Positions 10,401 through 40,009 of a stretch of 42,067 bases of DNA are shown here, piece after piece. A program made the translations under genes and the position numbers. The DNA is from Myxococcales bacterium. Its GTDB lineage: Bacteria; Myxococcota; B64-G9. The notes beneath the pieces were generated by a model, which had not been told where the DNA came from, did not search any database, and worked only from the letters and a program-made list of their open reading frames with translations. The stretch is from contig JALVPF010000173.1 of the NCBI GenBank assembly GCA_027031935.1, forward strand, positions 1 through 42,067, read 5' to 3'. Each line of letters starts with the position of its first letter. Position 1 is the stretch's first letter.

Positions 10401-10427
10401 TGAAGGTTTTCTGTGTATCTGGGGAAT
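10401..10427 (+). promoter_or_regulatory. Candidate ECF promoter, copy 2
   Basis: TGAAGGTTTTC-N9-GGGGAAT in the gap before the RCC1 lipoprotein gene. Confidence 0.55.
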
Positions 10428-10460
10428 AAGCCATTAGACACAATAAACCTGGAGGAAAGA

Positions 10461-22003: not shown

Positions 22004-22064
22004 TCACATGATAAGAAACAACGTTCTTTTGGTGTCCATTTTAACAATTATGAGAGGTGAGAAA

Positions 22065-25000: not shown

Positions 25001-26078
25001 TCCGGATGCCAACGAATGGGCCTTCATTGTCTATCTCAACGCGGACAACAATCTGGAGTCCTATGGATATGAGGATGTCTCAGAAATGGGTCAGGCTGGT
25101 TCGTCTCCATATGTTCACATCGTGGCTCTTTTCGATACATACGCAGGCCCGGCCAATGTCATCTATATTACCCAGGGCGGTTACGACGTGGTGGAAGAGC
25201 GAGGCGAGATCGACATGAGCGATTGGCAGACCCTGAGAGATTTCGGTATCTGGGCCATAGACAATTACCCTGCCCGCCATTATGCCATGATCATGTGGGA
25301 CCATGGTGGCGGCTGGAAAAAGCCCGTGGACAGCCCGGTAACCAAGGGCTTTTCCAACGATGACCATGGTACCGCTTACGAGATTTCAGTATCCAACGGT
25401 GATTATGCACAAGCCTTGGCCGGAATAACAGATCACCTGGGTGACAAGCTGGATATAGTTGGCTTCGATGCATGCCTCATGGGCATGTGGGAGGTTGCAG
25501 ATGCAAGCGCCCCTTATGCTCATTATCTCGTTGCTTCTTCAGAGACGGAGCCCGGTCGCGGATGGGCATACCATGGATTCCTGCCTGGCCTGGTGGCCAA
25601 CTGGCAGATGAGCGCGCTGGAGCTGGCCACGTCCATCGTTGATGCTTTCTACAACGAGGACGCAGGTGACTCTACTCTGGCGGTAACCGATCTGGACACC
25701 ATGGATGATCTGAATGCTGCTATCACGAACTTTGCCAATGTCCTGATGGCCCATCCGGACCTGTATGGCAGCATCAGCAGCGTCAGGGGATCCACTCAGT
25801 CCTTCTACCTGGAGGAGTTCAGGGATCTGCAGGATTTTGCAGAGCGGGTAGCAGCCATGAACGGTGCTCCTTCTGATCTGGTAGATGCGGCAAATGCATT
25901 GGTGGCTCAACTGCAGATCACTATAGCCTACAATCGCGCCCAGTCTGATTATCCTGGTGCCAATGGCTTGAGCGTGTACTTCCCGCAGAGAGGGACCAGC
26001 CCAGATAGCGAGTACACCGGTGCAGGTGCGGTCTGGAGTTTGCACACTACCTGGGATGAGTTCCTGGAATCTTTTTAA
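22065..26078 (+). CDS. Large lipoprotein: EGF-like repeats, two PPC-like domains, C-terminal clostripain (peptidase C11)
   Basis: Lipobox FYG-C; ten GYQDxx..C repeats; GTYYL...D domains; WAFIVYLNADNNL, WDHGGGW (His), GFDACLM (Cys), ASSETEP. Confidence 0.9.
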   Translation: MKSMRLMVLSVAWACLLPLSFYGCSGGGDDLVCMPDSCSSHGECNDSSGEIVCSCEQGYTGAHCGACAEGYQDNDGDGSCLESCSDDYCSGHGTCSDAQGTASCECEDGYSGEKCTDCADGYQDNDEDGTCLQSCASLSWDCANHGSCVDDSGVAMCQCDSGYQDNDADGTCTEDCTTADLECGDHGSCDDSAGQAQCACEEAWGGDTCDVCADGYQDNDADGTCEIACGVGVLDCGEHGYCVDSSGHVECKCVTGHTGDDCSECADGYQDNDGDGACQPGCDLFGGSCGTHGHCDDSTGETMCVCDEGHIGDDCATCDDGYQDNNSDGYCLPTCETSSLNCGQHGDCSDSSGFATCDCQEGYAGDLCDLCSGGYQDNDGDGVCTVDCFHADLSCGNNAMCDDSEGTAVCVCNEGYAGDNCDTCADGYQDNDDNQTCMPTCGQLGWDCSNHGSCDDSGGIALCQCDEQYTGSQCDQCAAGYQDNDGDGVCSVACSAASLNCGANSHCDDSTGTAGCVCDDGYVGANCDQCADGYQDTDMNGSCMPTCESLAWDCSGHGTCTYESGEAVCACEEGYFDDGVGHCIVVGAGENCMAPLPLDLSQTLVSGDTTGMGNDNEGSCASSSHSADDVVYVFSVVQPLHVVFEVTGFDTIMYIRSTCDDAASEIECNDDGGEGLGSLLDLNLSVGTYYLFIDGYSSGSGQYDLSIQVSCGDGLIYDPQSGDCIDDPCLPNPCNEQNMHVCEPVLPASFTCSCDPGYIDDPQNPGTCIPDPNPHGEACADAMPLTVGEGTLTGTTSDANDDARGSCGGNGPDRVYGFVIDEPMRAEFEMSGYDTVLHLRTTCDDPDSQIACDDEGGSAHGSKITEMLDPGTYYLWADSWSSGGDYDLTYSFRTDPCNPDPCPGTPECVASFDWTSYECVCPEGTLPFDGDCVDDPCDPNECVEEHKNKCIPELPGAYHCECNTGYIPDPAAPDTCIMDPDANEWAFIVYLNADNNLESYGYEDVSEMGQAGSSPYVHIVALFDTYAGPANVIYITQGGYDVVEERGEIDMSDWQTLRDFGIWAIDNYPARHYAMIMWDHGGGWKKPVDSPVTKGFSNDDHGTAYEISVSNGDYAQALAGITDHLGDKLDIVGFDACLMGMWEVADASAPYAHYLVASSETEPGRGWAYHGFLPGLVANWQMSALELATSIVDAFYNEDAGDSTLAVTDLDTMDDLNAAITNFANVLMAHPDLYGSISSVRGSTQSFYLEEFRDLQDFAERVAAMNGAPSDLVDAANALVAQLQITIAYNRAQSDYPGANGLSVYFPQRGTSPDSEYTGAGAVWSLHTTWDEFLESF

Positions 26079-26097
26079 TCAGGACTAGGTACGAGAT

Positions 26098-26128
26098 AAA
26101 GACGGGGTCAGACTTTGGCCCCGTCTTT
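26098..26128. terminator. Bidirectional terminator between convergent genes
   Basis: AAAGACGGGGTCA-gact-TTGGCCCCGTCTTT inverted repeat. Confidence 0.8.
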
Positions 26129-27083
26129 ACTTGACTCTGCTCAGCTTCAGGCCTTTTTTTCTCAGTTGTGAAATTACACCAGTGTCTCCCAGGAGATGGC
26201 CAGCGCCAACGGCGAAGAAAAACTTCGTGTCCTTGTTTTCCGAAATCTTTTTAGCCATTCTTTCTGCCATGTGGGTGTTGCGATCGAAAAACAGCCTCTT
26301 CATGATTTTTCTATCCAGCGGATTTTTCGGATCGTAGGTCTCCATCATGGTGTCGTAGAGTTTTTTCTCATCGCCTTTCAGGTAAGCCTCAAGAAGTTCG
26401 GTTACGGGGTCTGAGCCCTTTGCATGGAACTCGTCCAGTTGCTCCAGGGTCTGTTTCAGCATGCGGATCTGTTCTTCCATGGTCAGACTGTCGAAAACGT
26501 CAAGCTGTTCCTTTACCGTCTCTATTCCGCCAACCTTCTTCCCCTTTTTTTGAGCTCTAAGGTAAATCACCATGTCCAGGGGTTGTTTGGAGGCAAACTC
26601 CATGAGGTGATCCAAAAGCACAACTTGTGCGGTAATAGCCCAGATTTTCATTCTGTTCAGGGGGGCAAAAGGAAAACCCTTTGCGGAAAAGAGCCCTTCC
26701 AGTTTCTTGAAGAGCTTCTTGGGTAAAACATCTTCAAGGGTTTTTCCCCCAGGCAGCAACATCTGGCCAGCTACTGAAAGCTGCGTGGCCATGTCCATGG
26801 GGACCTCCGTGTAAAGCTCATCACAGCCATCTATGGCGTCGCTTACTGATTTTGGAAACGCAAGAACCCTGGCGTCTGGTATGTGAATGGTGCCAAAAAT
26901 ATAAGATGGGTGATCCCCCTGGATTTTCCATAGCAAAGGGTGCGACGACAAGGTAGTAGGAGCCATGTTCTTTTTTTGTTTCACGTCTGCTGCAGCACTC
27001 TTGTCGGTTTGAGTGCATGCCATGAAAGCCAAGAGGGTTGAGAATACAATTGTTATGCTGCGTGCGTAAGGCCGTCTGGACAT
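26127..27083 (-). CDS. TraB/GumN (TIKI-like) family lipoprotein
   Basis: LLWKI...SYIFGTIH, LD, GIETVKEQ, DRN, FFAVGAGHLLG; lipobox-like FMA-C; GGAGG before ATG 27083. Confidence 0.9.
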   Translation of the reverse strand: MSRRPYARSITIVFSTLLAFMACTQTDKSAAADVKQKKNMAPTTLSSHPLLWKIQGDHPSYIFGTIHIPDARVLAFPKSVSDAIDGCDELYTEVPMDMATQLSVAGQMLLPGGKTLEDVLPKKLFKKLEGLFSAKGFPFAPLNRMKIWAITAQVVLLDHLMEFASKQPLDMVIYLRAQKKGKKVGGIETVKEQLDVFDSLTMEEQIRMLKQTLEQLDEFHAKGSDPVTELLEAYLKGDEKKLYDTMMETYDPKNPLDRKIMKRLFFDRNTHMAERMAKKISENKDTKFFFAVGAGHLLGDTGVISQLRKKGLKLSRVK

Positions 27084-27197
27084 TGGATCCTCCATTTGGA
27101 TTCAGCCATTTGTTTTCAATAAATTATTGAGCATATTGTTGTGCTTTGCACAAGCATTGTTCTTTAGTATCATGTTTTGCCAGTCAGGAGGCACAAA

Positions 27198-27416
27198 ATG
27201 GAGCCGGGCGAAATAATCTCAAAGCTTGCGGATCGATCAGCCAGAGGCATCCTGGAAGGCCTGGTCGGTATTGCAGTGATAGTAATCGGTATCTATCTGG
27301 CATTTTGGGTCTTCGGGATCGTGCTCAGGGTCATCGTTCTCTTGTTGGTGGCAGGAGCAGCCGTTTACCTGTTTTTCTTGTTGGTGGATTGGGTCAAAAA
27401 ACTCGATGGAAGCTGA
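27198..27416 (+). CDS. Small two-TM membrane protein
   Basis: SD AGGAGG; long hydrophobic run; fills the gap between neighbouring genes. Confidence 0.7.
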   Translation: MEPGEIISKLADRSARGILEGLVGIAVIVIGIYLAFWVFGIVLRVIVLLLVAGAAVYLFFLLVDWVKKLDGS

Positions 27417-27419
27417 AAT

Positions 27420-28427
27420 TCATCTTTCCATCATTACCCGATCGAAAACCTCCTTGATATCCATTATTGAAGTAAAGTCCACATCAACGGGATGTCTTGT
27501 TCCATGGGGGCTTATCAGGACTCCCTTGAAGAATTTTTGCTCGACCTGTTCGAGGTAAAACATGTACTGGCCCTGTACAACCTTGAACGGGATTTTCAAC
27601 CTGAGCCTGCCTTCGTGAGCCCATATCTCCGTATCAGACCCTGTCATCTCGAACAGATAGTCAATACGCAAAGGAGCTATGTCCTCATGTTGCTCCTGGG
27701 TTTGTTTTGTCGGCTGATCCGGTTCTATGGGCTGGGCTGGCTGAGGTGCCTGTTGTGACTGAGGCGATTCTTCGACCATCTCTGTCAGAATCATCACATC
27801 CGATGTTCCTTCGGCAAACCTGTCCCTGGCCTGGAGCTTTTCTTCCTTCTCGCCGTGTTGTTTTGTGACAAGGCTTTGTGTGAGCCTGGCCAACTCATCC
27901 AGGTCCTTGCGGGCATCATGGGTAAGCACGAGGGTTCTATCTTTTGGATCCATGTCCTGAAGGGATCTTCCATCAAGGGATATCAATAAAATGGAGCCTG
28001 GCATTTTCGATACCATCTCTATTTTGATATTCTGAAGCTCTGTGTTACCCCTGAGTCTAAGTATGTCGCGCTCCAGATCCAGGGTGATGCCCATGGCAGC
28101 AATTTCATCGCGCAGAGCCCCGAGACCACCGAGGGCTTGGCCGAGCATTTTTGCGACAGCTTCGCACAGGTGAGACGGATGGGTGAAGCCCAGTATGGAG
28201 AAGGCAGGGAGAGAGCGCAGGAACAAGGGCTGTATAATTTTTATTTTATCTCTGCCTGCTCCATAGATTTTCAGTCTTGTGATGGGCTGTCTCGTCAATG
28301 GGTGTACGAAGGTTCCCCCTACCACAGGGACCCATGCAAGCAAACCACGGCCAGGATCATCTATCTCGAAAGACTCCACCAGGGGCACCAATAGCGATCT
28401 GAGTTGCTGAAATTCTGGAATCGTCAT
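27420..28427 (-). CDS. Hypothetical protein, two globular parts joined by a Q/P linker
   Basis: 335-aa ORF starting 1 nt after the queH stop. Confidence 0.75.
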   Translation of the reverse strand: MTIPEFQQLRSLLVPLVESFEIDDPGRGLLAWVPVVGGTFVHPLTRQPITRLKIYGAGRDKIKIIQPLFLRSLPAFSILGFTHPSHLCEAVAKMLGQALGGLGALRDEIAAMGITLDLERDILRLRGNTELQNIKIEMVSKMPGSILLISLDGRSLQDMDPKDRTLVLTHDARKDLDELARLTQSLVTKQHGEKEEKLQARDRFAEGTSDVMILTEMVEESPQSQQAPQPAQPIEPDQPTKQTQEQHEDIAPLRIDYLFEMTGSDTEIWAHEGRLRLKIPFKVVQGQYMFYLEQVEQKFFKGVLISPHGTRHPVDVDFTSIMDIKEVFDRVMMER

Positions 28428-28428
28428 T

Positions 28429-29013
28429 TTAGTAACTCTTTTTTCTTCGTCTTTGTTCAGCTTCTGCCAGGCTCAATCTGCAACCACAATAGTCCTGCCT
28501 GTATAAACCGTATTTTTTTGAAAGCTCTACCGATAAGGCCTCTCCTGCTGCCTTCTTGAAACTTTCATTGCAATACTTGAGGCCATGATCGCTTGCCACC
28601 TGTTGTCCTATTCCCTCCAGAATTTTAGAATTCTTGTGTCTACTCAGGCTGAGAGTAGTGGTAAACCAATCGAACCCCAGCTCTCTTGACTTTCGGGCGG
28701 TATATTCCATTCTCAGATGATAACACGTCTGGCACCGTTCTTTAAAACTGCTTTCCGGTTGGTGTAAGTATGGTCCAACTGCTTGTTCCCAGTGTTCTGG
28801 CGTATATGGTTCTTCTATAATTTGAAGGTTTTTTATTTTAGCAAGGCGCCGGACTTCTTCCAGGCGTCGGTCATGCTCAGCCTGGGGATGGATGTTGGGA
28901 CCATACCAGTACAAGACAAGGTCAAACCGGGAAGAAAGCCTCACCACCGGCACCGTGGCACATGGTGCACAGCAAACATGTAAAAGCAGTTTGGTTTTTT
29001 GCTCGCGGGTCAT
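28429..29013 (-). CDS. queH: Epoxyqueuosine reductase
   Basis: LLLHVCCAPC, PNIHP..E..RR, RC..CY.LRM, FTTTL..S.HK, YRQDYCGC. Confidence 0.93.
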   Translation of the reverse strand: MTREQKTKLLLHVCCAPCATVPVVRLSSRFDLVLYWYGPNIHPQAEHDRRLEEVRRLAKIKNLQIIEEPYTPEHWEQAVGPYLHQPESSFKERCQTCYHLRMEYTARKSRELGFDWFTTTLSLSRHKNSKILEGIGQQVASDHGLKYCNESFKKAAGEALSVELSKKYGLYRQDYCGCRLSLAEAEQRRRKKSY

Positions 29014-30311
29014 TTCTTTGAAGAATTTTTACTTGCACCTTTTTCCTGGGGGGCCGTGGCGCCGAATCTTTCCCATGCCCTGAGATAATAGAGTGCAGTG
29101 CGTAACTGGAAATCACTAATCTTGTCCAGTTTTTTTCTCGTCTCGTCCTTGTGGCCTTCCCTGTGAAGGTGGCCATCGAGATCGGACTCTCTGGTAACAT
29201 GAATTTCGGTATCGCCCATGGGCGCACTTCGTGGCACCACCACGTCAGGGATTATTCCCTGTTCCTGTATGGATCTGTGGTTTGGTGTGTAATAGCGAGC
29301 GATGGTCAATTTGAGTCCCGATCCATCCTTCAATCCAACAACAGTCTGTACGGAACCCTTGCCAAAGGTTCTTACTCCCATGATCAAGGATCTTTTGTGG
29401 TCTTGCAAGGCACCGGCTACAATTTCAGATGCCGAAGCAGAGCCACCATTGACAAGGCACACCATGGGATAACGTGGTTCTGTGCCACGTCGATGTGCCG
29501 AGGAATAATCCAGTTTTTTGCTTCTGCCCCTGGTCTCAACGATGAGTCCCTCCGGGATGAAACGATCGGCCACTCTTATGGCTTGTTTCAACAGACCACC
29601 GGGATTGTTTCTCAGGTCCAGCACAAGTCCTTTTAGTTCGCCCTTGTTTCTTTTTTTCAGTTCTTTAAGTGCCTTCATCATGTAGTGTTCGGTACGTTCC
29701 GTAAACACCCGAATCCTTATATAGCCATAGCCGGGCAGCGGCAGATCGCTTTGGACCGGGTTGATTCTGATTCTTTGTCTTATAAGTACGAAGTCTTTCG
29801 GGTTTTCAAAGGTATCGCGATCGATGGTCAATACGACCTTTGTACCGGGCACCCCCTTTATTCGTTTTGTTGCTGCCATTACATCCATTTTCCGAACAGG
29901 CGCACCGTCTATTTTCACAATCTGATCTCCAGCCAGGATGCCGGCTCTTTTAGCTGGAGTGTCATCTATGGGTGAGACTACTACGAGCATTCCTTCTCGC
30001 ATCTCCAGTTCGATTCCCACACCACCGAAATTTCCGGAGGTGTCTTCCTGCATGGAACGAAACTCATCTGGTGTCATGAAGGAAGAATGTGGATCAAGGG
30101 TTTTGAGCATCCCGCGTATGGCCCCATAAATGATTTTTTGTGAATCCACCTTGTCCACGTACGAGTTTTGGATGTACTGCAGGACCTGGGCGAAAACATC
30201 CAGCTTCTTGTACGTATCATCCGGCGCAGCAAATGCGCTTCCGGCCACAAATAAAAAAAGCAAGGCTGTTACCGTGGTGGATTTGAAAAATCCATAAGCT
30301 GTGTTTTTCAT
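29010..30311 (-). CDS. ctpA: Carboxy-terminal processing protease (S41, PDZ)
   Basis: LDPHS, FGGVGI, LDLRNNPGG, SASASEIVAGALQD, FGKGSVQ, RYYTP, GIIPD. Confidence 0.95.
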   Translation of the reverse strand: MKNTAYGFFKSTTVTALLFLFVAGSAFAAPDDTYKKLDVFAQVLQYIQNSYVDKVDSQKIIYGAIRGMLKTLDPHSSFMTPDEFRSMQEDTSGNFGGVGIELEMREGMLVVVSPIDDTPAKRAGILAGDQIVKIDGAPVRKMDVMAATKRIKGVPGTKVVLTIDRDTFENPKDFVLIRQRIRINPVQSDLPLPGYGYIRIRVFTERTEHYMMKALKELKKRNKGELKGLVLDLRNNPGGLLKQAIRVADRFIPEGLIVETRGRSKKLDYSSAHRRGTEPRYPMVCLVNGGSASASEIVAGALQDHKRSLIMGVRTFGKGSVQTVVGLKDGSGLKLTIARYYTPNHRSIQEQGIIPDVVVPRSAPMGDTEIHVTRESDLDGHLHREGHKDETRKKLDKISDFQLRTALYYLRAWERFGATAPQEKGASKNSSKK

Positions 30312-30361
30312 GTTGTTCTCCTGTTCGTAAGCAGCAGAGCAATATATTATAGAGAAAGGGG

Positions 30362-31057
30362 TTAAATATCTACCTGCCTTTCCCCTAAAACAAGGGAGAC
30401 CTTGTTGTTGTCATTGACCTTTCGTATGTCATCCAGGAAAATTCCCGGCTCTGTACCCTTCCTCAGTTCAACGGAATAAATTGCCTGCTGAAGAATGCCG
30501 GCCCTTATGGTTTCAAGAGACAAGAGGGTCCACTTGTACAGGTGTTTATCCAGGATTTTTGCAAGGCTTTGTTCCGGATTTGAGTCCACAGGAAGCTGAA
30601 CGCGGAGTATTCGCTCCCTTGCCAAAGGAGCAAACAGATCCAGTTTGTCCAGCATGATCAACATGGCGCTCAGGGCAGCGCTTGCAAATATTGCGAGCAT
30701 GTAGAATCTCGTGCCTACCGCCATGCCTATGGCCATCACCAGAAAGATAAATCCCACATCCCTGGTCTCTTTCATGGCATTTCTGAATCTTATTATGGAA
30801 AGTGCTCCCACCAGAGCAAAGGCCCTGGCAATGTTGGAACCTATTATGAGCATTATCAGTGATACCACAGTGCCCATGATTATCAGTGTGTGTACATAGC
30901 TTTGTGAATACCCCATTCCTCGATGCGTATTTCGATAAACCCATGCTATGACCATGGAAAGGCAGAAGCCGAGAAAAAGGACCATGGCGATGTCAACCGG
31001 CGTGAATGTTCCTGTGAGATCCTTGAAACGTTCCAACTCCTTGAAAAGCTCATCCAT
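30362..31057 (-). CDS. DUF4956-family membrane protein
   Basis: IGSNIARAFALVGALSIIRFR..KET.D signature, several TMs, soluble C-terminal domain. Confidence 0.88.
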   Translation of the reverse strand: MDELFKELERFKDLTGTFTPVDIAMVLFLGFCLSMVIAWVYRNTHRGMGYSQSYVHTLIIMGTVVSLIMLIIGSNIARAFALVGALSIIRFRNAMKETRDVGFIFLVMAIGMAVGTRFYMLAIFASAALSAMLIMLDKLDLFAPLARERILRVQLPVDSNPEQSLAKILDKHLYKWTLLSLETIRAGILQQAIYSVELRKGTEPGIFLDDIRKVNDNNKVSLVLGERQVDI

Positions 31058-31817
31058 GGTTTTGTTCTCCTGTCCGACTTTTGCCTGTAAGCACAGATAC
31101 CAGGGGTATAACTTTCATGCCCTTGCCCATGGCAACTGCAGTACAATATTTGCTCATCCTGTTTATTCTGAGCTTGTGGTATTGAAGAATGTCCAGCAAC
31201 CATACCGGGATGGATGTTTCAGTTTTCAACTCCATTATTCCCATCTCCTGAGGAAGGAAGGAAAAAAGAGGAGCATCCGAGAGTAAATCCAGGTCGTTGA
31301 CCCTTCCCCTGCAGATGGTATCGAATGTGATTCGCAGCTTCGGAAAAGTCTGTCCAGAAGTGAAAGCCAAGCGTCTGTAGTCTGTTATTACAACAGGCCT
31401 GAGGGAAAGGGCTTTTACCAGCAATTCTACCTCTTGGCAAAAGAACTCCTCTTTACAACTCGTATCCGGCGCTCGTCCTTCACACAGGTCTAGAGCCTGT
31501 TCCAATGAGAGTTGGATTCGTTGCTTGTTGATCAGGTGGCCGGTCTTGGCCTTGATTTCCACGTAAGCCTTGTCAGGTTTGGGTTGAGAATCTTTGGGGT
31601 AAATCCTGACCCGCATTTTTGTACGAAGTCTCTCTCCTTCCACCTTGTCCCAGAACCAGTCCAGCCCTGGCGAGTCATAGTACAGGCTTAGAACCCTGTA
31701 GCCGTATTCCTCGTTGTTTTCATCCGGCTCCAGCAGTTGAGAGATGGATTGAACAACGCCCTGCATTTTTCTGAATGGCAGAATGAATTTTATTTCGTAT
31801 CTTCCCGCCTGGTTCAT
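31050..31817 (-). CDS. VTC (polyphosphate polymerase, TTM-fold) domain protein
   Basis: RYEIKF, SLYYDS, R.KMRVRIY, VEIK, Y.R.AF, RITFD, IMELK, SKY. Confidence 0.9.
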   Translation of the reverse strand: MNQAGRYEIKFILPFRKMQGVVQSISQLLEPDENNEEYGYRVLSLYYDSPGLDWFWDKVEGERLRTKMRVRIYPKDSQPKPDKAYVEIKAKTGHLINKQRIQLSLEQALDLCEGRAPDTSCKEEFFCQEVELLVKALSLRPVVITDYRRLAFTSGQTFPKLRITFDTICRGRVNDLDLLSDAPLFSFLPQEMGIMELKTETSIPVWLLDILQYHKLRINRMSKYCTAVAMGKGMKVIPLVSVLTGKSRTGEQNHG

Positions 31818-31818
31818 G

Positions 31819-32379
31819 TCATTGTCCTGGTCGCTGTGCTGAGCTTGAACAAACGATTCCAGTGTAAAAATTCACTGAAGCACTTTGTGGCGATGCCTGT
31901 TGTATGAAAATAATCTCCGCCTGGTTTTCAATAGCCGGAATGTCCAGGAGGTATTGCCCCGAGGTCTTGAACAATTCATGCTTTTGCCAGGTCAAGCCCT
32001 TGACCGTGATTTCGACCGGAAAACTCCCCTGTGGTCCAAGGAGGCGTAGATTCAGCGAACAATTTTTTGGAAGCTGGTTGGTCCTGGCCAGCACCACCCG
32101 GTCATTGTCAATCCAGCCCAGCGAGTTTGGGCTGACCAGGCCCCATGCTCGTCCACCCAGCAACCATGATGCCAATGGAGCATCGTGACGGATTTTTTTC
32201 TGGAACAAGGAGAGGTCTTCGGGGCTTATACCGGATAGGTCTCCAGCACGCATTTTCTGGGCTATGGTCCAGATTCGATCCTGTTCAGGTTCAGCGAGAC
32301 CCCAAGCGAAAAACAAGGCAGCGAACAAATATATCAGCACCAGGATTATAAAGCCCATGCCGGGTATTGAGAGCTTCAT
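31819..32379 (-). CDS. Membrane-anchored hypothetical protein
   Basis: N-terminal TM; ATGA overlap with the CotH-like gene and 1-nt gap to the VTC gene. Confidence 0.65.
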   Translation of the reverse strand: MKLSIPGMGFIILVLIYLFAALFFAWGLAEPEQDRIWTIAQKMRAGDLSGISPEDLSLFQKKIRHDAPLASWLLGGRAWGLVSPNSLGWIDNDRVVLARTNQLPKNCSLNLRLLGPQGSFPVEITVKGLTWQKHELFKTSGQYLLDIPAIENQAEIIFIQQASPQSASVNFYTGIVCSSSAQRPGQ

Positions 32380-35201
32380 GGATGGACTCCTCTTTTCGCC
32401 AGGTTCTTTAGGGAGTCATGTAGCTCTGACCATCTTTGAATTCCCAGGATGTCTCTGAGAAGATGCATCATGAAGGGCCTATCGCACGTGGAATAAAATA
32501 TGTTTGAAAGGTCTATTTTTGCAGATCTTTTGGGAGAATTGCGCTCTGCGCCCACTATGCCATTCCCACAGCCAATGATGGCTGTTTCTTGTGCGTCAAG
32601 TCGCGAGCCTTTGGGATAGTACCGGGAAGCAGCCTTGACTTTGACGCCTGTCTGGCATTCATGAAGCAGATCGGAATAAAGCACGGCCCATGAGTCGTGT
32701 TTGACCAAAAGGCCGATTTTTGCTCTGCTCAGGATCGAGTCTTCGATGGTCACAGTGCTTCTTTCCCCTGCTGAAATGAGACTTCCTCCTGACATGTATA
32801 ATACGCTGTTGTGTATTCTTACCTTTGCTCCCATGAGGTCTATTGCCTCGTCGGCTGAACCGGAAATGGAGATACCATCCATGCTTGCCTTGGAAAATTC
32901 CAAATCCACAGCATCTTGAGACGATTTTTTGACACTTACCTGATGCAGCTTGAGATCTGCGGTGTTCGATACGTGCAGCATGTCAACACCGTTATGGTTG
33001 TTTTCAAACGCACAATTTTCCAGGAGGATGTTTCTGGTTTCATTTATGGAAAACGTGCCCCTTTGTTTCTCCCCAAACAAGACAGGAGCCGAGCCTCCTT
33101 TCAGGTGCAAATACTGAATCCTGGATCCTGCGGTATTGAATCCATGAATCACAATTCCACCGAAAATGGCATCTCCATCTGCTTCTACTACCACCGGCTG
33201 TCTGGGGTTTCCCTCGATGTTTACCGGTCCCAGAAAGATCAACGATGCTCCCTTGCCCATCAAAAACCTTGTCCCCGCTTGAACTTTTACTTTTTGACTG
33301 GACGAAAAGAACATGGATTTTTCCATGTGAATATCTCCAGGTCCCAGGATTACCTCTTCGGGGGGAGAAGACTTTCTGTAGGACCAAGGGTGTGCCGAGG
33401 ATTGGCCGGCCAACATGGATGGAACCACATCTGCCCCTATAGGCTTGTAATGCCTGGTATCCGATCCTGATTTTCTTGCAGTAAAATCCACGTGAAGCAC
33501 GATCTTGGAAGATGTGGCCAGGTTTTTTCCCCATATGTCGGCCTTGACAGGTTCGTAATCGCTCCGGACTTCCATCTTGTAGGAAACAGGTGCCGGCCTT
33601 GTGACAAGGGGATTGTATTTCTCATGAGCACTGGGATTTTTCACCAACTCGACAGATGGCAACAGTTTCATTGGTTCTGCAAGAAGCAGGACTCCATGCT
33701 CGTCAGGTGCTCTTTTCAGGCTTCCTGCGACCTTCAGTAACCATGGATGTTGTTGCTTGTCAGCAAACTGCAGCCGGATCGAATCCACAGAGATTCCCAC
33801 TCTTGAGCCAAGAGTGATTTCAAAAGGCCATGATGTCGGATCGGTGGATTTTTCTGGAGTCGCAGATATGGTGGGGTTTTCAAGCTCGGATAATAGATAG
33901 GCGCAGCGTGTGGCATACAATGCCATCAGAGATTCGAAAACAAGGGAGAGTTTTTTTACGTCCATGGGTCTGAGCATCTTGTAAAGGAATGAATCATCTC
34001 CTGGTGCGAGTTCATAGGCATCCCAATGGGCATCTGTCATCAATTCAGGGAGGACTTTCTTGAACCATCTCAGTCCCTTGGTTCTCAGCCTGGAAGGTCG
34101 CGCAGGGCCAAGAAGCAGGCGGTGGAGTATTCGGTTACGCAGGGTTAAATAACCAGGTACCATCTCCAGCCTTATCCCGAGGGGATGGTTCGAAGGTTTG
34201 AAAACAGGACTTGGATCGAAACCGCGCAAGGACCATGCTATGGGTTCCCATTTCCCCGAGCCTAAATCATGTACCAGTTTGTGACCTTGCCTCCAATCTC
34301 TCTGATCAATGGAAAACAGGATTTCAAGGGCGTCCAGGGTGGCAAATTTTTTCAGGTCCAACTCGTTGTGCGCGAAGTCGGAAAAATCCTGAAAAGAATC
34401 AGACGAAATGTGTCTGAGCAAAGATGCCAGCTCATCATTGGATTTTTTTTCTCCACTGCACCAGGCACTCTTTTTCCATGAACCAGGAGTCATCCACAAT
34501 GTCTCTGCTGGCACCTCGGTGTCCATGTCTCCGGAATACAGACTACATGGATAGCGGTTGGATCTGCGTAACAAGGCCTCGTCTGCCATTATCTGTCTTC
34601 TATATACCCCCATGTCGGCACCGTTGATCCATACTCTTACAAAATCCGGTTCGGGGTTGAGCAATCCCTGGTCTCCGGCGATCTGTGCTATCAGAGCATT
34701 TGTAATCATAAATGGTGTCGGTTCATTGACGAGAGCCACGGCTTTCAGGCCCCGGTCCCCTCCGTCCTTGCCAAAACGGACCTTAAGTGATTTCTGCGTC
34801 CCTAAACGGTGCCAATGCCTGTGGCCCCTCTGTCGAAGCCTTATGGATATGTTTTTCCCTCCTCTGGTTAAAACTCCATCAACATATTTTCCCTTTCCCG
34901 GCTGAGGGGTCATGAGTTCATGTAGCTGAGGGTTTTTCAGGTGAATCCTGAAGCGGGGCAGGTGCGAAGGAGCGATGGAATTTGACCCGAAGAACCTGTT
35001 TGACCAAGTGCTCAACATGTCGTGGAAAGCAATATGAAAGTCGTCTATGGAGAGATCCCGTTGAGGGGAGGCGATTCTACGATAGGCATCCAGGTTTGCG
35101 TAAGCGGTCCAGGCACACCATGCGCTTAGTACGATTATTGGAGCACTGAATACAAGTGCCGATGAGATGCTGATCCGCAAAAGGCGCCTTGGGGCTTTCA
35201 A
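32376..35201 (-). CDS. CotH-like kinase domain protein with C-terminal right-handed beta-helix
   Basis: N-terminal TM; RQRG..HW...QKSLKV.F, FVRVWING..MGVY, D..GKWEPIAW; beta-helix repeats DAVDLEFS / EAIDLMGA / ISAGERS / GLLVKHDS. Confidence 0.75.
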   Translation of the reverse strand: MKAPRRLLRISISSALVFSAPIIVLSAWCAWTAYANLDAYRRIASPQRDLSIDDFHIAFHDMLSTWSNRFFGSNSIAPSHLPRFRIHLKNPQLHELMTPQPGKGKYVDGVLTRGGKNISIRLRQRGHRHWHRLGTQKSLKVRFGKDGGDRGLKAVALVNEPTPFMITNALIAQIAGDQGLLNPEPDFVRVWINGADMGVYRRQIMADEALLRRSNRYPCSLYSGDMDTEVPAETLWMTPGSWKKSAWCSGEKKSNDELASLLRHISSDSFQDFSDFAHNELDLKKFATLDALEILFSIDQRDWRQGHKLVHDLGSGKWEPIAWSLRGFDPSPVFKPSNHPLGIRLEMVPGYLTLRNRILHRLLLGPARPSRLRTKGLRWFKKVLPELMTDAHWDAYELAPGDDSFLYKMLRPMDVKKLSLVFESLMALYATRCAYLLSELENPTISATPEKSTDPTSWPFEITLGSRVGISVDSIRLQFADKQQHPWLLKVAGSLKRAPDEHGVLLLAEPMKLLPSVELVKNPSAHEKYNPLVTRPAPVSYKMEVRSDYEPVKADIWGKNLATSSKIVLHVDFTARKSGSDTRHYKPIGADVVPSMLAGQSSAHPWSYRKSSPPEEVILGPGDIHMEKSMFFSSSQKVKVQAGTRFLMGKGASLIFLGPVNIEGNPRQPVVVEADGDAIFGGIVIHGFNTAGSRIQYLHLKGGSAPVLFGEKQRGTFSINETRNILLENCAFENNHNGVDMLHVSNTADLKLHQVSVKKSSQDAVDLEFSKASMDGISISGSADEAIDLMGAKVRIHNSVLYMSGGSLISAGERSTVTIEDSILSRAKIGLLVKHDSWAVLYSDLLHECQTGVKVKAASRYYPKGSRLDAQETAIIGCGNGIVGAERNSPKRSAKIDLSNIFYSTCDRPFMMHLLRDILGIQRWSELHDSLKNLAKRGVHP

Positions 35202-35226
35202 TGAGTTTTCTCCGTCCTTGCCAATG

Positions 35227-36372
35227 TCATGATGGCTTCATCCTTACCCATGCAAGGGGATCCACTGCCTTGCCACCCTTTCTGACTTCAAAGTACAGGT
35301 AGGCACCTTTGAGAGAGCCGCTGTCACCGACGGTTCCCACCTGTTGACCCTGCTGTATTCTTTGTCCTTTTCTTACATCTAGTTGATCGAGGTGTGCATA
35401 CAGAGTGTAATAGCCACCTCCATGATCTAGTATGACCAGCCGTCCATAGCCTTGAAAGACTTTGGCAAAAACAACCTTGCCAGGATAGACCGCTTTTACG
35501 GGTGAGTGCATGGGAGCGCGGAGATCTATACCGGTATGAATCGTGACGGTTTTGAACCTTGGGTCGATCTGCTTGCCAAAGGCTACCTCCAGGACAGGTG
35601 AATCAACAGGGCTTGGCAAGCGGCCTTTCCATGTGGCAAAGCCCTTTGCACTGCTGGGTTTGCCTTCCATGGTGGCAACAAGTTCCAACAAGCTTTTTCT
35701 GGCATGACGGAGTTCTTTCAGCGCTCGGTGATGCAGTACCGCTTTTTTATGCAAAAGATCAAGTGCGCTGAGTTTTTCTTCCCGGGCGGCTTCTGCTGCC
35801 TCTTTCTTTTTTTTCAGTTGCTGTCGTGTCTGTTCCAGGGATTTGCGCTGCTGGCGAATCTTTTTCTGGGTTTCCCATAGACGGTCACGGCTTATGACGA
35901 CGTTTTCATACAGTTGCTGATCTGCCTTGGCAAGATGCTCAATGAGATCATAGCGCTGCAATCCTTCTGAAATCGACTCGGAACTGAAGATGAGGTTCAA
36001 CCAGCCTACATCTCCTTGCATATAGAGAATGCGCAATCTTTTTTTGAGTCTTTTCTTTAGCAAATCCAGGGACACAGAGGCTTGTCGTTGCTGAATCCTG
36101 GATTTTTCCAGTTCCATTTCCAGTTCGTCCATACGTGCTTGCGTCTCCTGGAGTTGCTTGTTGGCTTCTTCGAGTTCTGCATCCAGCTTTCCCATTTCTC
36201 CCAGCAAGGACGTGGATTGCCTCAGGAGACGTCTATACAACTTTTGGCTTTTTTTCAGGTCTTTTCCAAGCTTGTTCAGATCGTCCTTAATGGGATTGGT
36301 CTTTTGAGCATATACTTCGGGTACGCAGAGCATGAATGAAAAAAGAAAAAGAATTAAACCGCGCCCAGTCAT
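35227..36372 (-). CDS. envC: EnvC-like murein hydrolase activator (coiled coil + M23/LytM)
   Basis: Signal peptide, long coiled coil, HTGID, GYG..VILDHG, TLYAHL, YLYFEVR; downstream of ftsEX. Confidence 0.85.
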   Translation of the reverse strand: MTGRGLILFLFSFMLCVPEVYAQKTNPIKDDLNKLGKDLKKSQKLYRRLLRQSTSLLGEMGKLDAELEEANKQLQETQARMDELEMELEKSRIQQRQASVSLDLLKKRLKKRLRILYMQGDVGWLNLIFSSESISEGLQRYDLIEHLAKADQQLYENVVISRDRLWETQKKIRQQRKSLEQTRQQLKKKKEAAEAAREEKLSALDLLHKKAVLHHRALKELRHARKSLLELVATMEGKPSSAKGFATWKGRLPSPVDSPVLEVAFGKQIDPRFKTVTIHTGIDLRAPMHSPVKAVYPGKVVFAKVFQGYGRLVILDHGGGYYTLYAHLDQLDVRKGQRIQQGQQVGTVGDSGSLKGAYLYFEVRKGGKAVDPLAWVRMKPS

Positions 36373-37262
36373 ATTCGTAGGTGTCTCCCGAGACTGGCCA
36401 AGGTTCCAAACATTCCCACCACGGCTCCTCCGGCAGCAGAGATTGCCACAGAAGAGATGGGAAGAAATTCCAGGTTCAGATCACCGGAACCTGGACCCAA
36501 GGGTATGGTCACCAGGGGTCTGGCAAGGATAAACAGTAACCATGCGCCACCGATACCCAGAAGAGCTCCGAGTCCGCCGAGCACAACTCCTTCGATATAG
36601 AAAGGTGCCTTGACGAAATTGTCGGTAGCACCCACCAGCTTCAGAATGTGTATCTCATCGGTCCTGGCGTACACTGACAGGCGGATGGTGTTGGAGACGA
36701 TCATCAATGTTGCAAATACCAGCAGAGCACCTATGAGCAAGGCGATGAGCCTGCTGAAATCCATGAAGTTGAAAAAGCGCCCCAACCACGCCTGGCCATA
36801 TTGCACCTGTTCGATTCCGGGATGAGAGACCAGTTTCTGTGCAAGAGCTTCTATACTCTTTGTGCTGTGTTCAGAAGAAGACAGCTTCACCTCCAGGCTC
36901 GAAGGCAGTGTGTCCGGACCAACTTCGTTCAGCAAGGTCGCCTGGGCCCCCAGCCTCTTCTTGAAAATTTCAAGAGCTTGTTTCTTGTCTATGAATCGGA
37001 TGGAGCCTACGACCTCGGATGATTCAAGGGTCGATTTTATTTCCTGGATTTCTTGCTCTGTTGCCTCGTCTTCAAGGTAGACAACCAGATACAGACCAGC
37101 TTTCAGGCGTTCGCCCAGCCGGTCCAGATTGTACCCAACGAGGGCTAAGACACAGAGCAACAAAAACACGATGGCAACAGTACCCACCGTTACTCCGGCA
37201 ACGACCGTATTGCGCCTGATATGTCTGAATGCCTGCATGGAAAAGTATACTATTTTTGACAT
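36369..37262 (-). CDS. ftsX: Cell division permease
   Basis: VVYL, LPSSLEV, VSNTIRLSVYARTDEIHILKLVGATDNFVKAPFYIEG. Confidence 0.93.
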   Translation of the reverse strand: MSKIVYFSMQAFRHIRRNTVVAGVTVGTVAIVFLLLCVLALVGYNLDRLGERLKAGLYLVVYLEDEATEQEIQEIKSTLESSEVVGSIRFIDKKQALEIFKKRLGAQATLLNEVGPDTLPSSLEVKLSSSEHSTKSIEALAQKLVSHPGIEQVQYGQAWLGRFFNFMDFSRLIALLIGALLVFATLMIVSNTIRLSVYARTDEIHILKLVGATDNFVKAPFYIEGVVLGGLGALLGIGGAWLLFILARPLVTIPLGPGSGDLNLEFLPISSVAISAAGGAVVGMFGTLASLGRHLRI

Positions 37263-37266
37263 TGTT

Positions 37267-37938
37267 TTATCCCAAGGGCATTCCGCCGGAAACCACACGA
37301 CCTTTCTCGAGATGAATGACACGATGTTGGGTTCTCTGTATCCAGGCGGTGTCATGGGTAGCGACCACGACGGTGGATCCCCTGGCGTTTATCCTGTTGA
37401 GAAGGACTCCGATCTCTTCACTCAGCGCCTGATCGAGGTTGCCCGTGGGCTCGTCTGCCATGAGTATCTGAGGATCGTTTACGATGGCCCTTGCGATTGC
37501 AACACGCTGTTGCTCACCACCAGATAGAGTTGGCGGCAATCTGTGAGCCCTGTGTTCCAATCCCACCAGTTCCAACACCTCACCCACCTTTTTGCGAATC
37601 TCTCCTCGTCCCTTGCCAAGAACTTCCAGGGAGATGGCCACATTCTGTTCCACCGTTCTGGATGGCAAGAGTTTGAAATCCTGAAAGACCACACCCATGT
37701 GGCGCCTGAACAGTGTTCTTTCTTTTTCCTTGATGTTGGCCACGTTTTTTCCAAACAGGAGAATTTGGCCGTTTTGACTGCGTTCAGCAAGCATTATTAC
37801 CCGTAAAAGACTGGTCTTTCCCGCACCGGATGGACCAGTTATGAAAGCGAATTCAGCTTTTTCAATTCGCAAGCTGACATCGATGAGTCCAGGACTATCT
37901 GACCCATATGACATGTATACATGGTACATCTGTATCAT
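37267..37938 (-). CDS. ftsE: Cell division ATP-binding protein
   Basis: GPSGAGKT, GVVFQDFKLL, LSGGEQQRVAIARA, ADEPTGNLD, ATHD. Confidence 0.95.
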   Translation of the reverse strand: MIQMYHVYMSYGSDSPGLIDVSLRIEKAEFAFITGPSGAGKTSLLRVIMLAERSQNGQILLFGKNVANIKEKERTLFRRHMGVVFQDFKLLPSRTVEQNVAISLEVLGKGRGEIRKKVGEVLELVGLEHRAHRLPPTLSGGEQQRVAIARAIVNDPQILMADEPTGNLDQALSEEIGVLLNRINARGSTVVVATHDTAWIQRTQHRVIHLEKGRVVSGGMPLG

Positions 37939-37971
37939 CTGAAACCCGGCACCAAGGTCTCGATATATTGC

Positions 37972-39009
37972 CTAGACCTTGTCGTCATCATTTCCTGCAA
38001 GATATCCAAGGATAACCTCATCCAGGCTCTTTTCAGAGATGAGGTTGTCACCGAAAATAGTTGGTCCACTGGTATCCTTTGGTTTGGGTTTTTTTTCAAG
38101 ACGTCTGGCAGCCAGAACTTCGGGTGGCAAGGATGAAGCGCCTGTGGCAGCTGGCTTTTCTTGTGTTTTTTCTTTGCCTTTTTCCGGGCTCTTGGCCTGT
38201 ATGGCGACCTTGGGGCTTGGAGCTTTTTTTGAGGGGATTTTTTCCAGATCATCCTTTGGCACGAAGATTTTTGGAGAGCTCTTCGGGCGGGAAAATCCAC
38301 CTGCTGAACCGGTAGTCTTGACAGGAGGCCTGGTGCCTGTCGTACTGGTGGTGGCTGGAGCTTTTCCAGCGGGTGGCGGCTGGGTCTTGACTTGAGTTGC
38401 CTGGGGCTGTGTTCTCCCTGCCCTTGGAACCACTACAGTGGGTGACTCGGACGACGGAATCCGGGAATCTGAGGGAGGCGATGTGGGTGGCGCTGGCTGC
38501 GATTTGGCCATTGGCCGTACAGATTGAGTTTTTGGCTGTGTCTTTGGCCCTTGTATCGGTACTGTTTTGGGCAATAAGGTCGAAGCCGTTTGTGCTGGTT
38601 TGGATGTAGCTGCAACCGGCTGCGATGGAATCGTAGAAGGTGGTTTGTTCTGTGGTGCGGGAGCAGGAAACTTGTCAGGGATTGAAGGTTCTGTGCCAAC
38701 CTGAAGGCCTGGTGATGTCATGGGTGCCGAGGATGAGGCAATGTCGTCATAGACTCCATTGATAAGATTTCGCAGCATGGCCTTGTGCTGTTCCTGCATG
38801 AGTTCCTTTACGATTTCCTGCAGGTTGTCAGCTTTGACGATATCCGCATAACTGGTCTTTTTTGTTGCCAGGATATTTCCGCCTACGAAAAGGTGGGTGA
38901 TGATGTGTGGGTTGGTCACACCACTGTCCTCTGTCTGAACGTGGTAAATCTGTCCACCATGCTTGATGTTGTGGTTGAAGCCTGTAACCATCTGAGGCTT
39001 GTTGCTCAC
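37972..39009 (-). CDS. Hypothetical protein with ordered termini and a long P/T/S/K-rich linker
   Basis: N-terminal GFNHNIKH...YHVQTEDSG..NPHIITHLF.GG.I; C-terminal FGDNLISEKSLDEVILGYL. Confidence 0.8.
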   Translation of the reverse strand: MSNKPQMVTGFNHNIKHGGQIYHVQTEDSGVTNPHIITHLFVGGNILATKKTSYADIVKADNLQEIVKELMQEQHKAMLRNLINGVYDDIASSSAPMTSPGLQVGTEPSIPDKFPAPAPQNKPPSTIPSQPVAATSKPAQTASTLLPKTVPIQGPKTQPKTQSVRPMAKSQPAPPTSPPSDSRIPSSESPTVVVPRAGRTQPQATQVKTQPPPAGKAPATTSTTGTRPPVKTTGSAGGFSRPKSSPKIFVPKDDLEKIPSKKAPSPKVAIQAKSPEKGKEKTQEKPAATGASSLPPEVLAARRLEKKPKPKDTSGPTIFGDNLISEKSLDEVILGYLAGNDDDKV

Positions 39010-39084
39010 GTACCAACCCTTTCCCTTGTTCCCTCGAAAGCAGATATTATCAGGGCTTCCGGGAGAATCGCAAGATCCTGGTTA

Positions 39085-39906
39085 TTACACCATCAGGTCC
39101 ACCTGGTGGATTTCGCCCAAGGGGCCACCGAGAAATCTCTGCCCCACGTGACTGAATCGCTCAGGGACATCTGTAACGAAATACTCACGAGTACCTCTGG
39201 GTAAAGGGTTTGGCTCTGGTCCCTCCTCGCTCTTGTTCAACAGTGCTAAAACAGCCTCTGCTACTGCGCTAGCCGAGTCCACGAGTTGTGTGCCTGGCCC
39301 CACCGCCTTGGCGATGGCAGGTACGAGAAGCGGATAGTGAGTACAGCCGAGGATAAGAGAATCCAGACGGTTTTCTTTGCTCCAGGATCGCAGATATTCG
39401 TTTGCCACCTGGAAGGCAACCGGGTGGTCTCCCCAGCCTTCCTCTGCCAAAGGAACAAACAGAGGACAAGGCTTTGGAAACACTTTCACCCTTGGCTCTA
39501 GAGAAATCAGCGCATTGTCGTATGCACGCGACGCTATGGTCCCTTCTGTTCCAAGCACCCCGATTACTTTCTTTTTCGATACCTGCAGGGCACGGCGCGC
39601 GCCTGGTTCGATGACACCAATAACCGGAATATGGAGGACTTTTTCCAACGCAGGCAGTGCCACGGACGAAGCGGTATTACATGCCACCACGAGAAGCTTG
39701 ATGCCTTTTTGCGCAAGAAACGATGCATTGTTCAATGCATATCGGGTAACCACTTCAGGTGATTTCGTTCCATAGGGAACCCTTGCCGTGTCACCAAGGT
39801 AGATGGTGTTTTCCCAGGGCATGAGCTTGTGTATGGCAGCAAGAACCGTAAGTCCACCAATTCCAGAATCGAAAACGCCAATGGGTCGTGGGTCGAGCAT
39901 GTTCAT
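39085..39906 (-). CDS. murI: Glutamate racemase
   Basis: IGVFDSGIGGLTV, DTARVPYG.K, ACNTAS, LGCTHYP. Confidence 0.97.
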   Translation of the reverse strand: MNMLDPRPIGVFDSGIGGLTVLAAIHKLMPWENTIYLGDTARVPYGTKSPEVVTRYALNNASFLAQKGIKLLVVACNTASSVALPALEKVLHIPVIGVIEPGARRALQVSKKKVIGVLGTEGTIASRAYDNALISLEPRVKVFPKPCPLFVPLAEEGWGDHPVAFQVANEYLRSWSKENRLDSLILGCTHYPLLVPAIAKAVGPGTQLVDSASAVAEAVLALLNKSEEGPEPNPLPRGTREYFVTDVPERFSHVGQRFLGGPLGEIHQVDLMV

Positions 39907-39945
39907 GGGCTAGAACATGCAATTGATCCGCAGGGATGTCAACAC

Positions 39946-39996
39946 GTAGGGGGCACGCGATTGTGATTGCAGGGGCACGGCGCGCCGTGCCCCTAC
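39946..39996. repeat. GTAG-type REP-like palindrome plus a partial second copy
   Basis: Perfect 24-bp palindrome AGGGGCACGGCGCGCCGTGCCCCT (39971-39994), read as GTAGGGGCACGG... on the minus strand; partial GTAGGGGGCACG at 39946. Confidence 0.75.
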
Positions 39997-40009
39997 CAGG
40001 CAAATAATG

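Follow-up and report, generated by a model that had tools for sequence, protein, structure and literature searches.

The locus considered here lies in a 42,067-nucleotide stretch of DNA from a Myxococcales bacterium (lineage B64-G9; GenBank assembly GCA_027031935.1, contig JALVPF010000173.1, positions 1-42,067), the whole of which is referred to below as the window. Four open reading frames (ORFs) on the minus strand fill positions 30362-35201 and encode, in transcription order, a CotH-fold protein, a 186-residue protein, a VTC-domain protein and a DUF4956 protein, here called P0001 to P0004. P0001 (32376-35201, minus strand) starts at a TTG codon and is a membrane-anchored multidomain protein of 941 residues with Pfam matches to CotH and Beta_helix. 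P0002 (31819-32379, minus strand) is a single-pass membrane protein of an unnamed family, described from its ORF and an AlphaFold2 (AF2) model. P0003 (31050-31817, minus strand) is a cytoplasmic, Vtc4-like triphosphate tunnel protein of 255 residues assigned by Pfam, and P0004 (30362-31057, minus strand) is an inner-membrane protein of 231 residues assigned by Pfam and hydropathy. Read directly from the sequence, the P0001 stop codon overlaps the P0002 ATG by 4 nucleotides (ATGA), a single nucleotide separates P0002 from the ATG of P0003, and the P0003 stop codon overlaps the P0004 ATG by 8 nucleotides. Every start has a GGAG- or AGGA-like site on its 5' side, the TTG of P0001 being preceded by GGAG 8 nucleotides upstream. 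The four genes form a tightly coupled, operon-like unit, and an earlier reading of this DNA (the original prediction) had rightly stressed both this coupling and the division of the products into a soluble VTC protein, a polytopic DUF4956 protein and two anchored proteins. Hydropathy gives one N-terminal hydrophobic segment each for P0001 and P0002, none for P0003 and four to five for P0004.

The composition of this cassette is strongly conserved. Related loci were gathered with a profile of VTC homologues (the 14-sequence alignment A2), which gave 543 confirmed places; the best 80 were kept, and their content was determined using phmmer with the window proteins against all of their ORFs. A DUF4956 gene adjoins the VTC gene in 79 of these 80 loci, and the lone miss (L039) ends at a contig edge. 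With two CotH paralogues from the same genome added as queries, phmmer finds a CotH-family ORF in 70 loci, and Pfam adds three more (L034, L068 and L070), so that at least 73 of the 80 carry one; in four of the seven loci without CotH, the sequence breaks off no more than 1.6 kb upstream of VTC. The predicted co-occurrence of the three families is therefore strong. Long P0001-type proteins are found in 42 loci and P0002 homologues in 37, and the order P0001-type, P0002, VTC, DUF4956 is identical in 36 of those 37 (L028 differs in having the long gene downstream), an arrangement that is not due to chance. Three layouts can be distinguished: an optional porin gene followed by CotH/beta-helix, P0002, VTC and DUF4956 in Myxococcota, Desulfobacterota and Aminicenantes; VTC, DUF4956 and a CotH protein of about 450-610 residues in Actinobacteria, candidate-phyla bacteria and one gammaproteobacterium; and CotH/beta-helix, VTC, DUF4956 and CotH in Sericytochromatia. 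Both VTC and DUF4956 are found in 17 of 41 related genomes, VTC without DUF4956 in one (with the VTC match 240 bases short of a contig end), DUF4956 without VTC in one, and neither in 22, and matches to both fall in the same three of 14 control genomes. DUF4956 is thus the constant membrane partner of VTC, and the cassette represents, in the form typical of Myxococcota, a VTC-DUF4956-CotH envelope module that is widespread in bacteria.

P0003 is matched by Pfam VTC (PF09359) at 133.2 bits (cut-off 23), with residues 6-229 lying on positions 2-232 of the 235 in the model. A profile of 33 members of its family finds yeast Vtc4 (3g3q) over the whole tunnel domain with an E-value of 1.6e-18, against 4.2e-9 and 1.6e-6 for the non-catalytic Vtc2 and Vtc3. 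Residues K10, R69, R71 and E196 of P0003 align with K200, R264, R266 and E426 of Vtc4, the first of which we take to be required for catalysis, and these tunnel residues, together with other charged ones, are invariant in alignments of 33 and 35 relatives. A complex containing the Vtc4 R264A/R266A/E426N triple mutant is catalytically impaired (PMC9911596). Judged from these alignments, P0003 retains an intact Vtc4-like active site, a point in favour of the original prediction, and most likely polymerises polyphosphate (polyP) from ATP in the manner of the yeast enzyme. Neither an SPX domain nor a fused membrane domain was found in its 255 residues by Pfam or hydropathy.

P0004 is assigned to DUF4956 (PF16316) at 72.1 bits (cut-off 30.6) and is expected from its hydropathy to consist of four to five transmembrane segments and a C-terminal soluble domain of about 90 residues. 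The family is unusually constant, with a mean column identity of 63% and members that are 45-86% identical to P0004 across phyla, and it contains the invariant stretch GSNIARAF...S..RFRNA.KETRD...GM..GT.F as well as the invariant basic residues R78, R90, R92, K96 and R99. A DUF4956 profile found nothing meaningful among Protein Data Bank sequences (best E-value 0.036, for KimA), and a search of the ESM Atlas returned only DUF4956 clusters. When compared using hhalign with MgtC proteins taken from related genomes, the family gave a probability of 86% and an E-value of 4.8e-6 over 122 columns of the transmembrane region; P0004 itself falls below the cut-offs of the MgtC/SapB models (17.1 versus 31.4 bits in Pfam, 16.8 versus 214 in NCBIfam). 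These results suggest that DUF4956 is only distantly akin to MgtC/SapB. Both families have a transmembrane domain of similar size followed by a soluble C-terminal domain, whereas an invariant motif and an obligate VTC neighbour set DUF4956 apart. This distant likeness agrees with the published transmembrane description of a streptococcal DUF4956 homologue, which is presented as an MgtC-type transmembrane domain joined to an ACT domain (PMC12345266). The parallel drawn in the original prediction with the membrane part of the yeast VTC complex does not extend to this protein, which is unrelated to the yeast channel.

The large protein P0001 was modelled with AF2 from a 33-sequence alignment (predicted local distance difference test score, pLDDT, 88.3; predicted template modelling score 0.86). 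Its N-terminal hydrophobic anchor (about residues 10-37; 35091-35174, minus strand; AF2 helix 12-44) is followed by a CotH-fold domain (residues 83-441; 33879-34955, minus strand) delimited by profile, hhalign and column counts, a beta-sandwich (residues 445-572; 33486-33869, minus strand) taken from the secondary structure of the model, a right-handed beta-helix (residues 600-902; 32496-33404, minus strand) supported by Pfam, Foldseek and conservation, and two C-terminal helices. Basic residues (K2, R5, R6 and R9) precede the anchor, and by the positive-inside rule its N-terminus would lie in the cytoplasm. P0001 and P0002, each with a single N-terminal hydrophobic segment behind basic residues, are consequently predicted to face the periplasm, as had been anticipated.

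The fold of the CotH domain is clear. Foldseek pairs the model with Bacillus cereus CotH (5jda; E-value 5.3e-15, TM-score 0.83 on the target), the family profile finds 5jd9 with an E-value of 2.9e-23, and hhalign relates the family to shorter, canonical CotH partners with a probability of 99.5%. Pfam CotH (PF08757) scores 35.8 bits (cut-off 23.8) over model positions 1-209 of 322 only. To locate the catalytic sites we used three alignments, of the family profile with 5jd9, of a canonical-partner profile with 5jd9, and of the family with the canonical partners. Bacillus subtilis CotH is inactivated by D228Q or D251A (PMC7821199). D251 corresponds to position 324 of P0001, anchored by E-P-I-A-W against E-V-I-P-W, the catalytic-loop Asn to position 306, and the catalytic Asp (D228) to position 301, where HMMER aligns it with an Arg that has D302 beside it, such that a shift of one residue is possible. 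In these alignments P0001 carries R301, G306 and S324 at the three positions. Among the 33 family members, position 324 is N in 13, D in 6, S in 4, E in 4 and Q in 2, position 306 is N in 27, position 301 is H in 22, R in 8 and S in 3, and position 302 is D in 25. The catalytic Asp and Asn are each kept in 32 of the 34 shorter canonical partners, which come from other phyla, and the Asp of the WD motif in 30. Since Gly and Ser occupy the metal-binding positions, P0001 has a CotH fold but is probably not a canonical kinase, and the phosphorylation that had been ascribed to it as a 'CotH kinase' is doubtful. The N-lobe motifs (R123, G126, K137 and S138) and the invariant arginines of the family (R123, R212, R355 and R432) are kept. 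Two further strong CotH genes lie elsewhere in the genome, on C341 (L002) and C183 (L003), scoring 131 and 120 bits; in both, WG.D replaces WD, and the C341 paralogue is flanked by genes for a HAMP histidine kinase and for a DUF4388-containing response regulator.

The beta-helix of P0001 and, more tentatively, the beta-sandwich of P0002 are of types associated with glycans, which speaks for the original prediction. The beta-helix of P0001 (Pfam Beta_helix, 35.6 bits, cut-off 25.9) resembles polysaccharide hydrolases, lyases and epimerases in Foldseek, with a GH87 glucanase (E-value 6e-7), AlgE4 (3e-4), NosD (4e-4), AlgG (1e-3) and also GH28 among its matches, and it bears a ladder of near-invariant acidic, His and other residues (D740, H743, D763, D766, D788, E813 and K834). 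P0002 has no family match in Pfam, NCBIfam or PADLOC. Its profile retrieves 249 cluster representatives at an E-value of 1e-3 or below among 1.84 billion, nearly all of 170-210 residues. The AF2 model (pLDDT 90.4) comprises a transmembrane helix, three short helices forming a helical stalk and an eight-strand beta-sandwich, and a near-invariant W-G...P.LD..W motif follows directly on the transmembrane helix. The best fold matches include CBM35, CBM6, BcsB and the RetS sensor domain, at a best Foldseek E-value of 8.7e-4 and a best VIA Z-score of 7.1 (values below 8 may reflect only the common sandwich arrangement); against CBM35, Z is 6.9 with a root-mean-square deviation of 3.0 over 99 residues. 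A fourth protein fixed in the set, P0002 is one of the points specific to this locus.

Several neighbours recur around the related cassettes. ORFs resembling the phosphate-selective porins O and P occur in 28 of the 80 loci, all of them of the long CotH/beta-helix type and mostly with the porin-like ORF directly upstream of the long CotH gene, and Pfam Porin_O_P matches all three of the representatives scanned. This fits a phosphate polymer that crosses the envelope. Proteins of about 700 residues with a C-terminal PPDK_N domain (ATP-grasp, phosphoenolpyruvate-synthase-like) lie near the cassette in 14 loci (for example L012:3310-5376 and L014:4295-6484), DUF3108-like proteins of about 250-290 residues follow DUF4956 in 15, and a further unnamed family recurs in 11. 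On one deltaproteobacterial contig, a Na/Pi cotransporter fused to PhoU domains is encoded directly downstream of DUF4956 (L018:1882-3561). Single loci have glycan-related neighbours, namely an MBOAT protein in L042, a GT2 in L055 and a GH5/42-like protein in L034. The first of these is a Desulfocapsa variant (L042:5617-13411) in which DUF4956 is followed in order by CotH/beta-helix, a TPR protein where P0002 would be expected, VTC and the MBOAT O-acyltransferase, a neighbour that hints at modification of an exported polymer.

Parts of this module have been reported before. Genes for CotH, a 'poly-phosphate polymerase' and DUF4956, with DUF4832, are described as directly adjoining the pel operons of Gram-positive bacteria (Whitfield et al. 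2020, PMC7112168). In S. intermedius, SIR_1592-1594 are the trio of the pel locus, and deletions of the DUF4956-type and CotH-type genes lower Pel production and aggregation (PMC12345266); the same authors' analysis did not find the trio outside pel loci. VTC-domain and CotH genes are also listed together in a C. perfringens pathogenicity locus (PMC2879425). The trio is thus published as a set of Gram-positive pel accessory genes, of which the cassette is a further version. The two have in common that the same three families are encoded together with a CotH-type protein predicted to be exported, and that a glycan-active component accompanies them. They differ in that the present genome is diderm, that its CotH fold, degenerate at the catalytic residues, forms one protein with a beta-sandwich and a beta-helix, and that there is a fourth, 186-residue transmembrane protein, with a phosphate-porin-like gene in relatives in place of DUF4832. 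Specific to this locus are the catalytically degenerate CotH-fold/beta-helix fusion and the fixed, unnamed fourth membrane protein. The original prediction had known of no established function, and our literature searches on bacterial VTC-domain proteins with CotH or polyP likewise found no functional study, although further papers may exist; in the literature examined, DUF4956 appears only in co-occurrence reports or expression-table listings.

Two better-characterised systems offer partial comparisons. The eukaryotic VTC complex (Vtc4/Vtc3/Vtc1; 3g3q, 7ytj and 8i6v) likewise pairs a Vtc4-type tunnel domain with a membrane protein and would share with the cassette the logic of synthesis coupled to membrane passage. 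Here, however, the partner is DUF4956 rather than a Vtc1-type three-helix domain, there is no SPX or fused membrane domain, and regulation by inositol pyrophosphates is not expected for P0003. The Bacillus spore-coat kinase CotH (5jd9/5jda) shares its fold and N-lobe motifs with P0001, which differs from it in having G306 and S324 at key sites and R301, beside D302, at the aligned position of the catalytic Asp, in being predicted to be extracytoplasmic and in being fused to glycan-type domains.

We are now able to propose a tentative model for the cassette, in which polyP synthesis takes place at the inner membrane and the product is delivered to glycan-type domains acting on the periplasmic side. 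We give this reading a probability of roughly 45%. Conservation of the tunnel residues suggests that P0003 would polymerise polyP from ATP in the cytoplasm. DUF4956 would most likely tether P0003 to the membrane and relay the chain as it grows, or phosphoryl groups taken from it, to the periplasmic face, where the membrane-anchored P0002 and P0001 would receive the polymer. P0001 might then use its beta-helix to bind or position the polymer, or to transfer it to an envelope glycan, rather than act as an ATP-dependent kinase; the loss of its kinase-type metal-binding residues makes such a role likelier than a canonical one. The set is completed in many relatives by an outer-membrane protein of phosphate-porin-like type and by another CotH that is catalytically intact. 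We infer the synthesis of polyP, the contact of VTC with DUF4956, a passage of the polymer through this partner or together with it, and an outward-facing P0001 and P0002 that act on a glycan. The idea of an exported phosphate donor serving surface modification, put forward in the original prediction, accordingly stands where the co-occurrence, the Vtc4 residues, the predicted periplasmic glycan-type domains and the porin links bear on it, and falls short at the canonical kinase step by P0001.

A number of observations weigh against this model. Since triphosphate tunnel enzymes include hydrolases and cyclases, conserved residues fall short of proof that P0003 is a polymerase. DUF4956 has no kinship with the membrane domain of yeast VTC; the one resemblance detected is to MgtC/SapB, which is not known to conduct polymers, and the conserved basic residues of DUF4956 may simply lie in cytoplasmic loops. 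P0001 lacks the Asn and Asp used in metal binding by CotH kinases, with the consequence that a role for it in phosphoryl transfer is speculative; Arg residues also follow its anchor, and its topology is only predicted. The fold match of P0002 is of middling strength. The cassette in the window has no porin or second CotH adjoining it, nor any of the other recurring neighbours, and the three Porin_O_P genes of the genome sit elsewhere and are only distantly similar to the cassette-linked porins (best E-value 2e-12). An unlinked porin partner drawn from these three was for that reason dropped.

Of the alternatives, the likeliest, though we still consider it unlikely, is that the product stays in the cytoplasm. 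VTC with DUF4956 as tether or regulator would then be a polyP synthase replacing polyphosphate kinase (PPK), and the periplasm-facing proteins would be co-regulated with it and either act elsewhere or sense the envelope. In its favour, the genome (a 5.5-Mb assembly of 613 contigs, 92% complete) yielded neither a PPK1 nor a PPK2 match but has one Ppx/GppA gene, which we also count for our own model; in addition, the kinase residues of P0001 are degenerate, and DUF4956 resembles a regulatory membrane family, MgtC/SapB (PMC12345266). The distribution of PPK1 among relatives gives the missing PPK little weight, however, and also counts against our own model: of the 41 related genomes, 6 have both VTC and PPK1, 12 VTC only, 13 PPK1 only and 10 neither, which means that PPK1 is unmatched in 10 of 23 VTC-negative relatives and present in 6 of 18 VTC-positive genomes. 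Replacement of PPK1 by VTC was therefore dropped as an argument, because the trend is weak and the 41 genomes are kin. PPK1 was likewise not matched in a genome of the same genus (G001). Against a purely cytoplasmic product stand the linkage of exported CotH-family proteins and of the outer-membrane phosphate-porin-like proteins, which it would leave unexplained, and the translational coupling of all four genes, which suggests a single assembly.

Somewhat less probable again is an accessory module for glycan modification, in which the beta-helix/CotH-fold protein processes an exopolysaccharide or envelope glycan, and VTC and DUF4956 have a regulatory or phosphate-homeostatic part instead of supplying a donor. 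The contiguity of the trio with pel operons and the lowered Pel of the mutants (PMC7112168, PMC12345266) speak for this, as do the likeness of the beta-helix to alginate epimerases and lyases and to glucanases, and the glycan-related genes beside the VTC-DUF4956 pair in L042, L055 and L034. However, a Pfam scan of the window (36 ORFs; ORFs of at least 150 residues) gave no glycosyltransferase, pel-type gene or DUF4832, with no genome-wide pel search made, and the recurring neighbours of the closest loci are of phosphate type. The conservation of a Vtc4-like active site across phyla moreover argues for a catalytic rather than a regulatory role of VTC.

We regard as improbable a small-molecule signalling or hydrolysis unit, with CYTH-like triphosphate hydrolysis or cyclisation by P0003, ligand sensing by the C-terminal domain of DUF4956 and a pseudokinase-like sensor in the periplasm. 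The chemistries of the triphosphate tunnel metalloenzyme superfamily are diverse, P0001 looks like a pseudokinase, and the C-terminal part of a DUF4956 homologue has been described as ACT-like (PMC12345266). VTC is nevertheless the only Pfam match of P0003, with no CYTH at an E-value of 0.01 or below, and the match of its profile to Vtc4 spans the tunnel domain from end to end. A part in cell division or cell-wall remodelling, suggested by the position between ftsE-ftsX-M23 and a CtpA-like S41 protease, with all genes codirectional, spacers of only 25 and 50 nucleotides and a similar layout in L007, was rejected as most improbable because FtsX, M23 and S41 homologues lie nearby in L007 alone among the 80 loci.

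The cassette is preceded, at a distance of 25 nucleotides, by ftsE, ftsX and a gene for an M23 peptidase with a PcsB-type coiled coil, all codirectional with it (35227-37938, minus strand); on its 3' side, after a 50-nucleotide spacer containing a TATAAT-like box, come a CtpA/CtpB-like S41 protease gene (29010-30311, minus strand), QueH and further genes. The cassette thus looks inserted into a string of cell-wall-remodelling genes. L007 is the sole locus to share the ftsX-M23...S41-QueH flanks, which makes the cell-division context a peculiarity of one lineage. A promoter and terminator scan of positions 26000-40000 found 13 promoter-like sites against 11.7 expected, and since all minus-strand terminator-like sites within 30362-35201 fall inside coding sequence, it sets no operon boundary. 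GC content is 0.47-0.50 over 26-36 kb, with no island in base composition. PADLOC gave no match to any of the four proteins, and NCBIfam none to P0001-P0003 and only the weak MgtC/SapB match to P0004. The genome contains one VTC gene and one DUF4956 gene, and its closest relatives are labelled uncultured Myxococcales or Deltaproteobacteria.

The remainder of the window is ordinary chromosome. It includes a 1356-residue protein in which many EGF-like repeats precede a clostripain (peptidase C11) domain at the C-terminus (22008-26078, plus strand), an unusual architecture for a bacterium, as well as an 843-residue RCC1-repeat protein (10413-12944, plus strand) and a 420-residue protein with four DUF7107 repeats (17372-18634, minus strand). 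Two ORFs are without a Pfam match, one of 335 residues (27420-28427, minus strand) whose counterpart in L007 is clearly homologous and occupies the same place (E-value 1e-140) and one of 345 residues (37972-39009, minus strand).

In bacteria, polyP synthesis is attributed to PPK1 and PPK2. A 2026 preprint on B. cereus describes non-PPK polyP synthesis, the origin of which it leaves unknown (PMC13484657). A bolder form of our model, which we consider unlikely, holds that bacteria possess a split VTC-like machine, with a soluble Vtc4-type polymerase docked on an MgtC-like membrane protein and extruding polyP through the inner membrane, a kinase-fold protein with exchanged Mg-ATP residues using the polymer or attaching it to an envelope glycan, and a dedicated phosphate-type porin carrying it onward in relatives. 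The residue swap at issue, found in the P0001 family, is of His or Arg at the catalytic position and Asn or Ser for the metal-binding Asp. If this form of the model were true, extruded polyP would be a phosphoanhydride donor for the ATP-free periplasm, and the cassette would provide extracellular polyP without PPK and extend the kinase fold to a new chemistry. More generally, the cassette bears on two questions, namely the source of extracellular polyP and the supply of phosphoryl donors to extracytoplasmic kinases, for which a Vtc4-like enzyme with a constant membrane partner, exported kinase-fold proteins and, in diderms, porins presents a concrete candidate.

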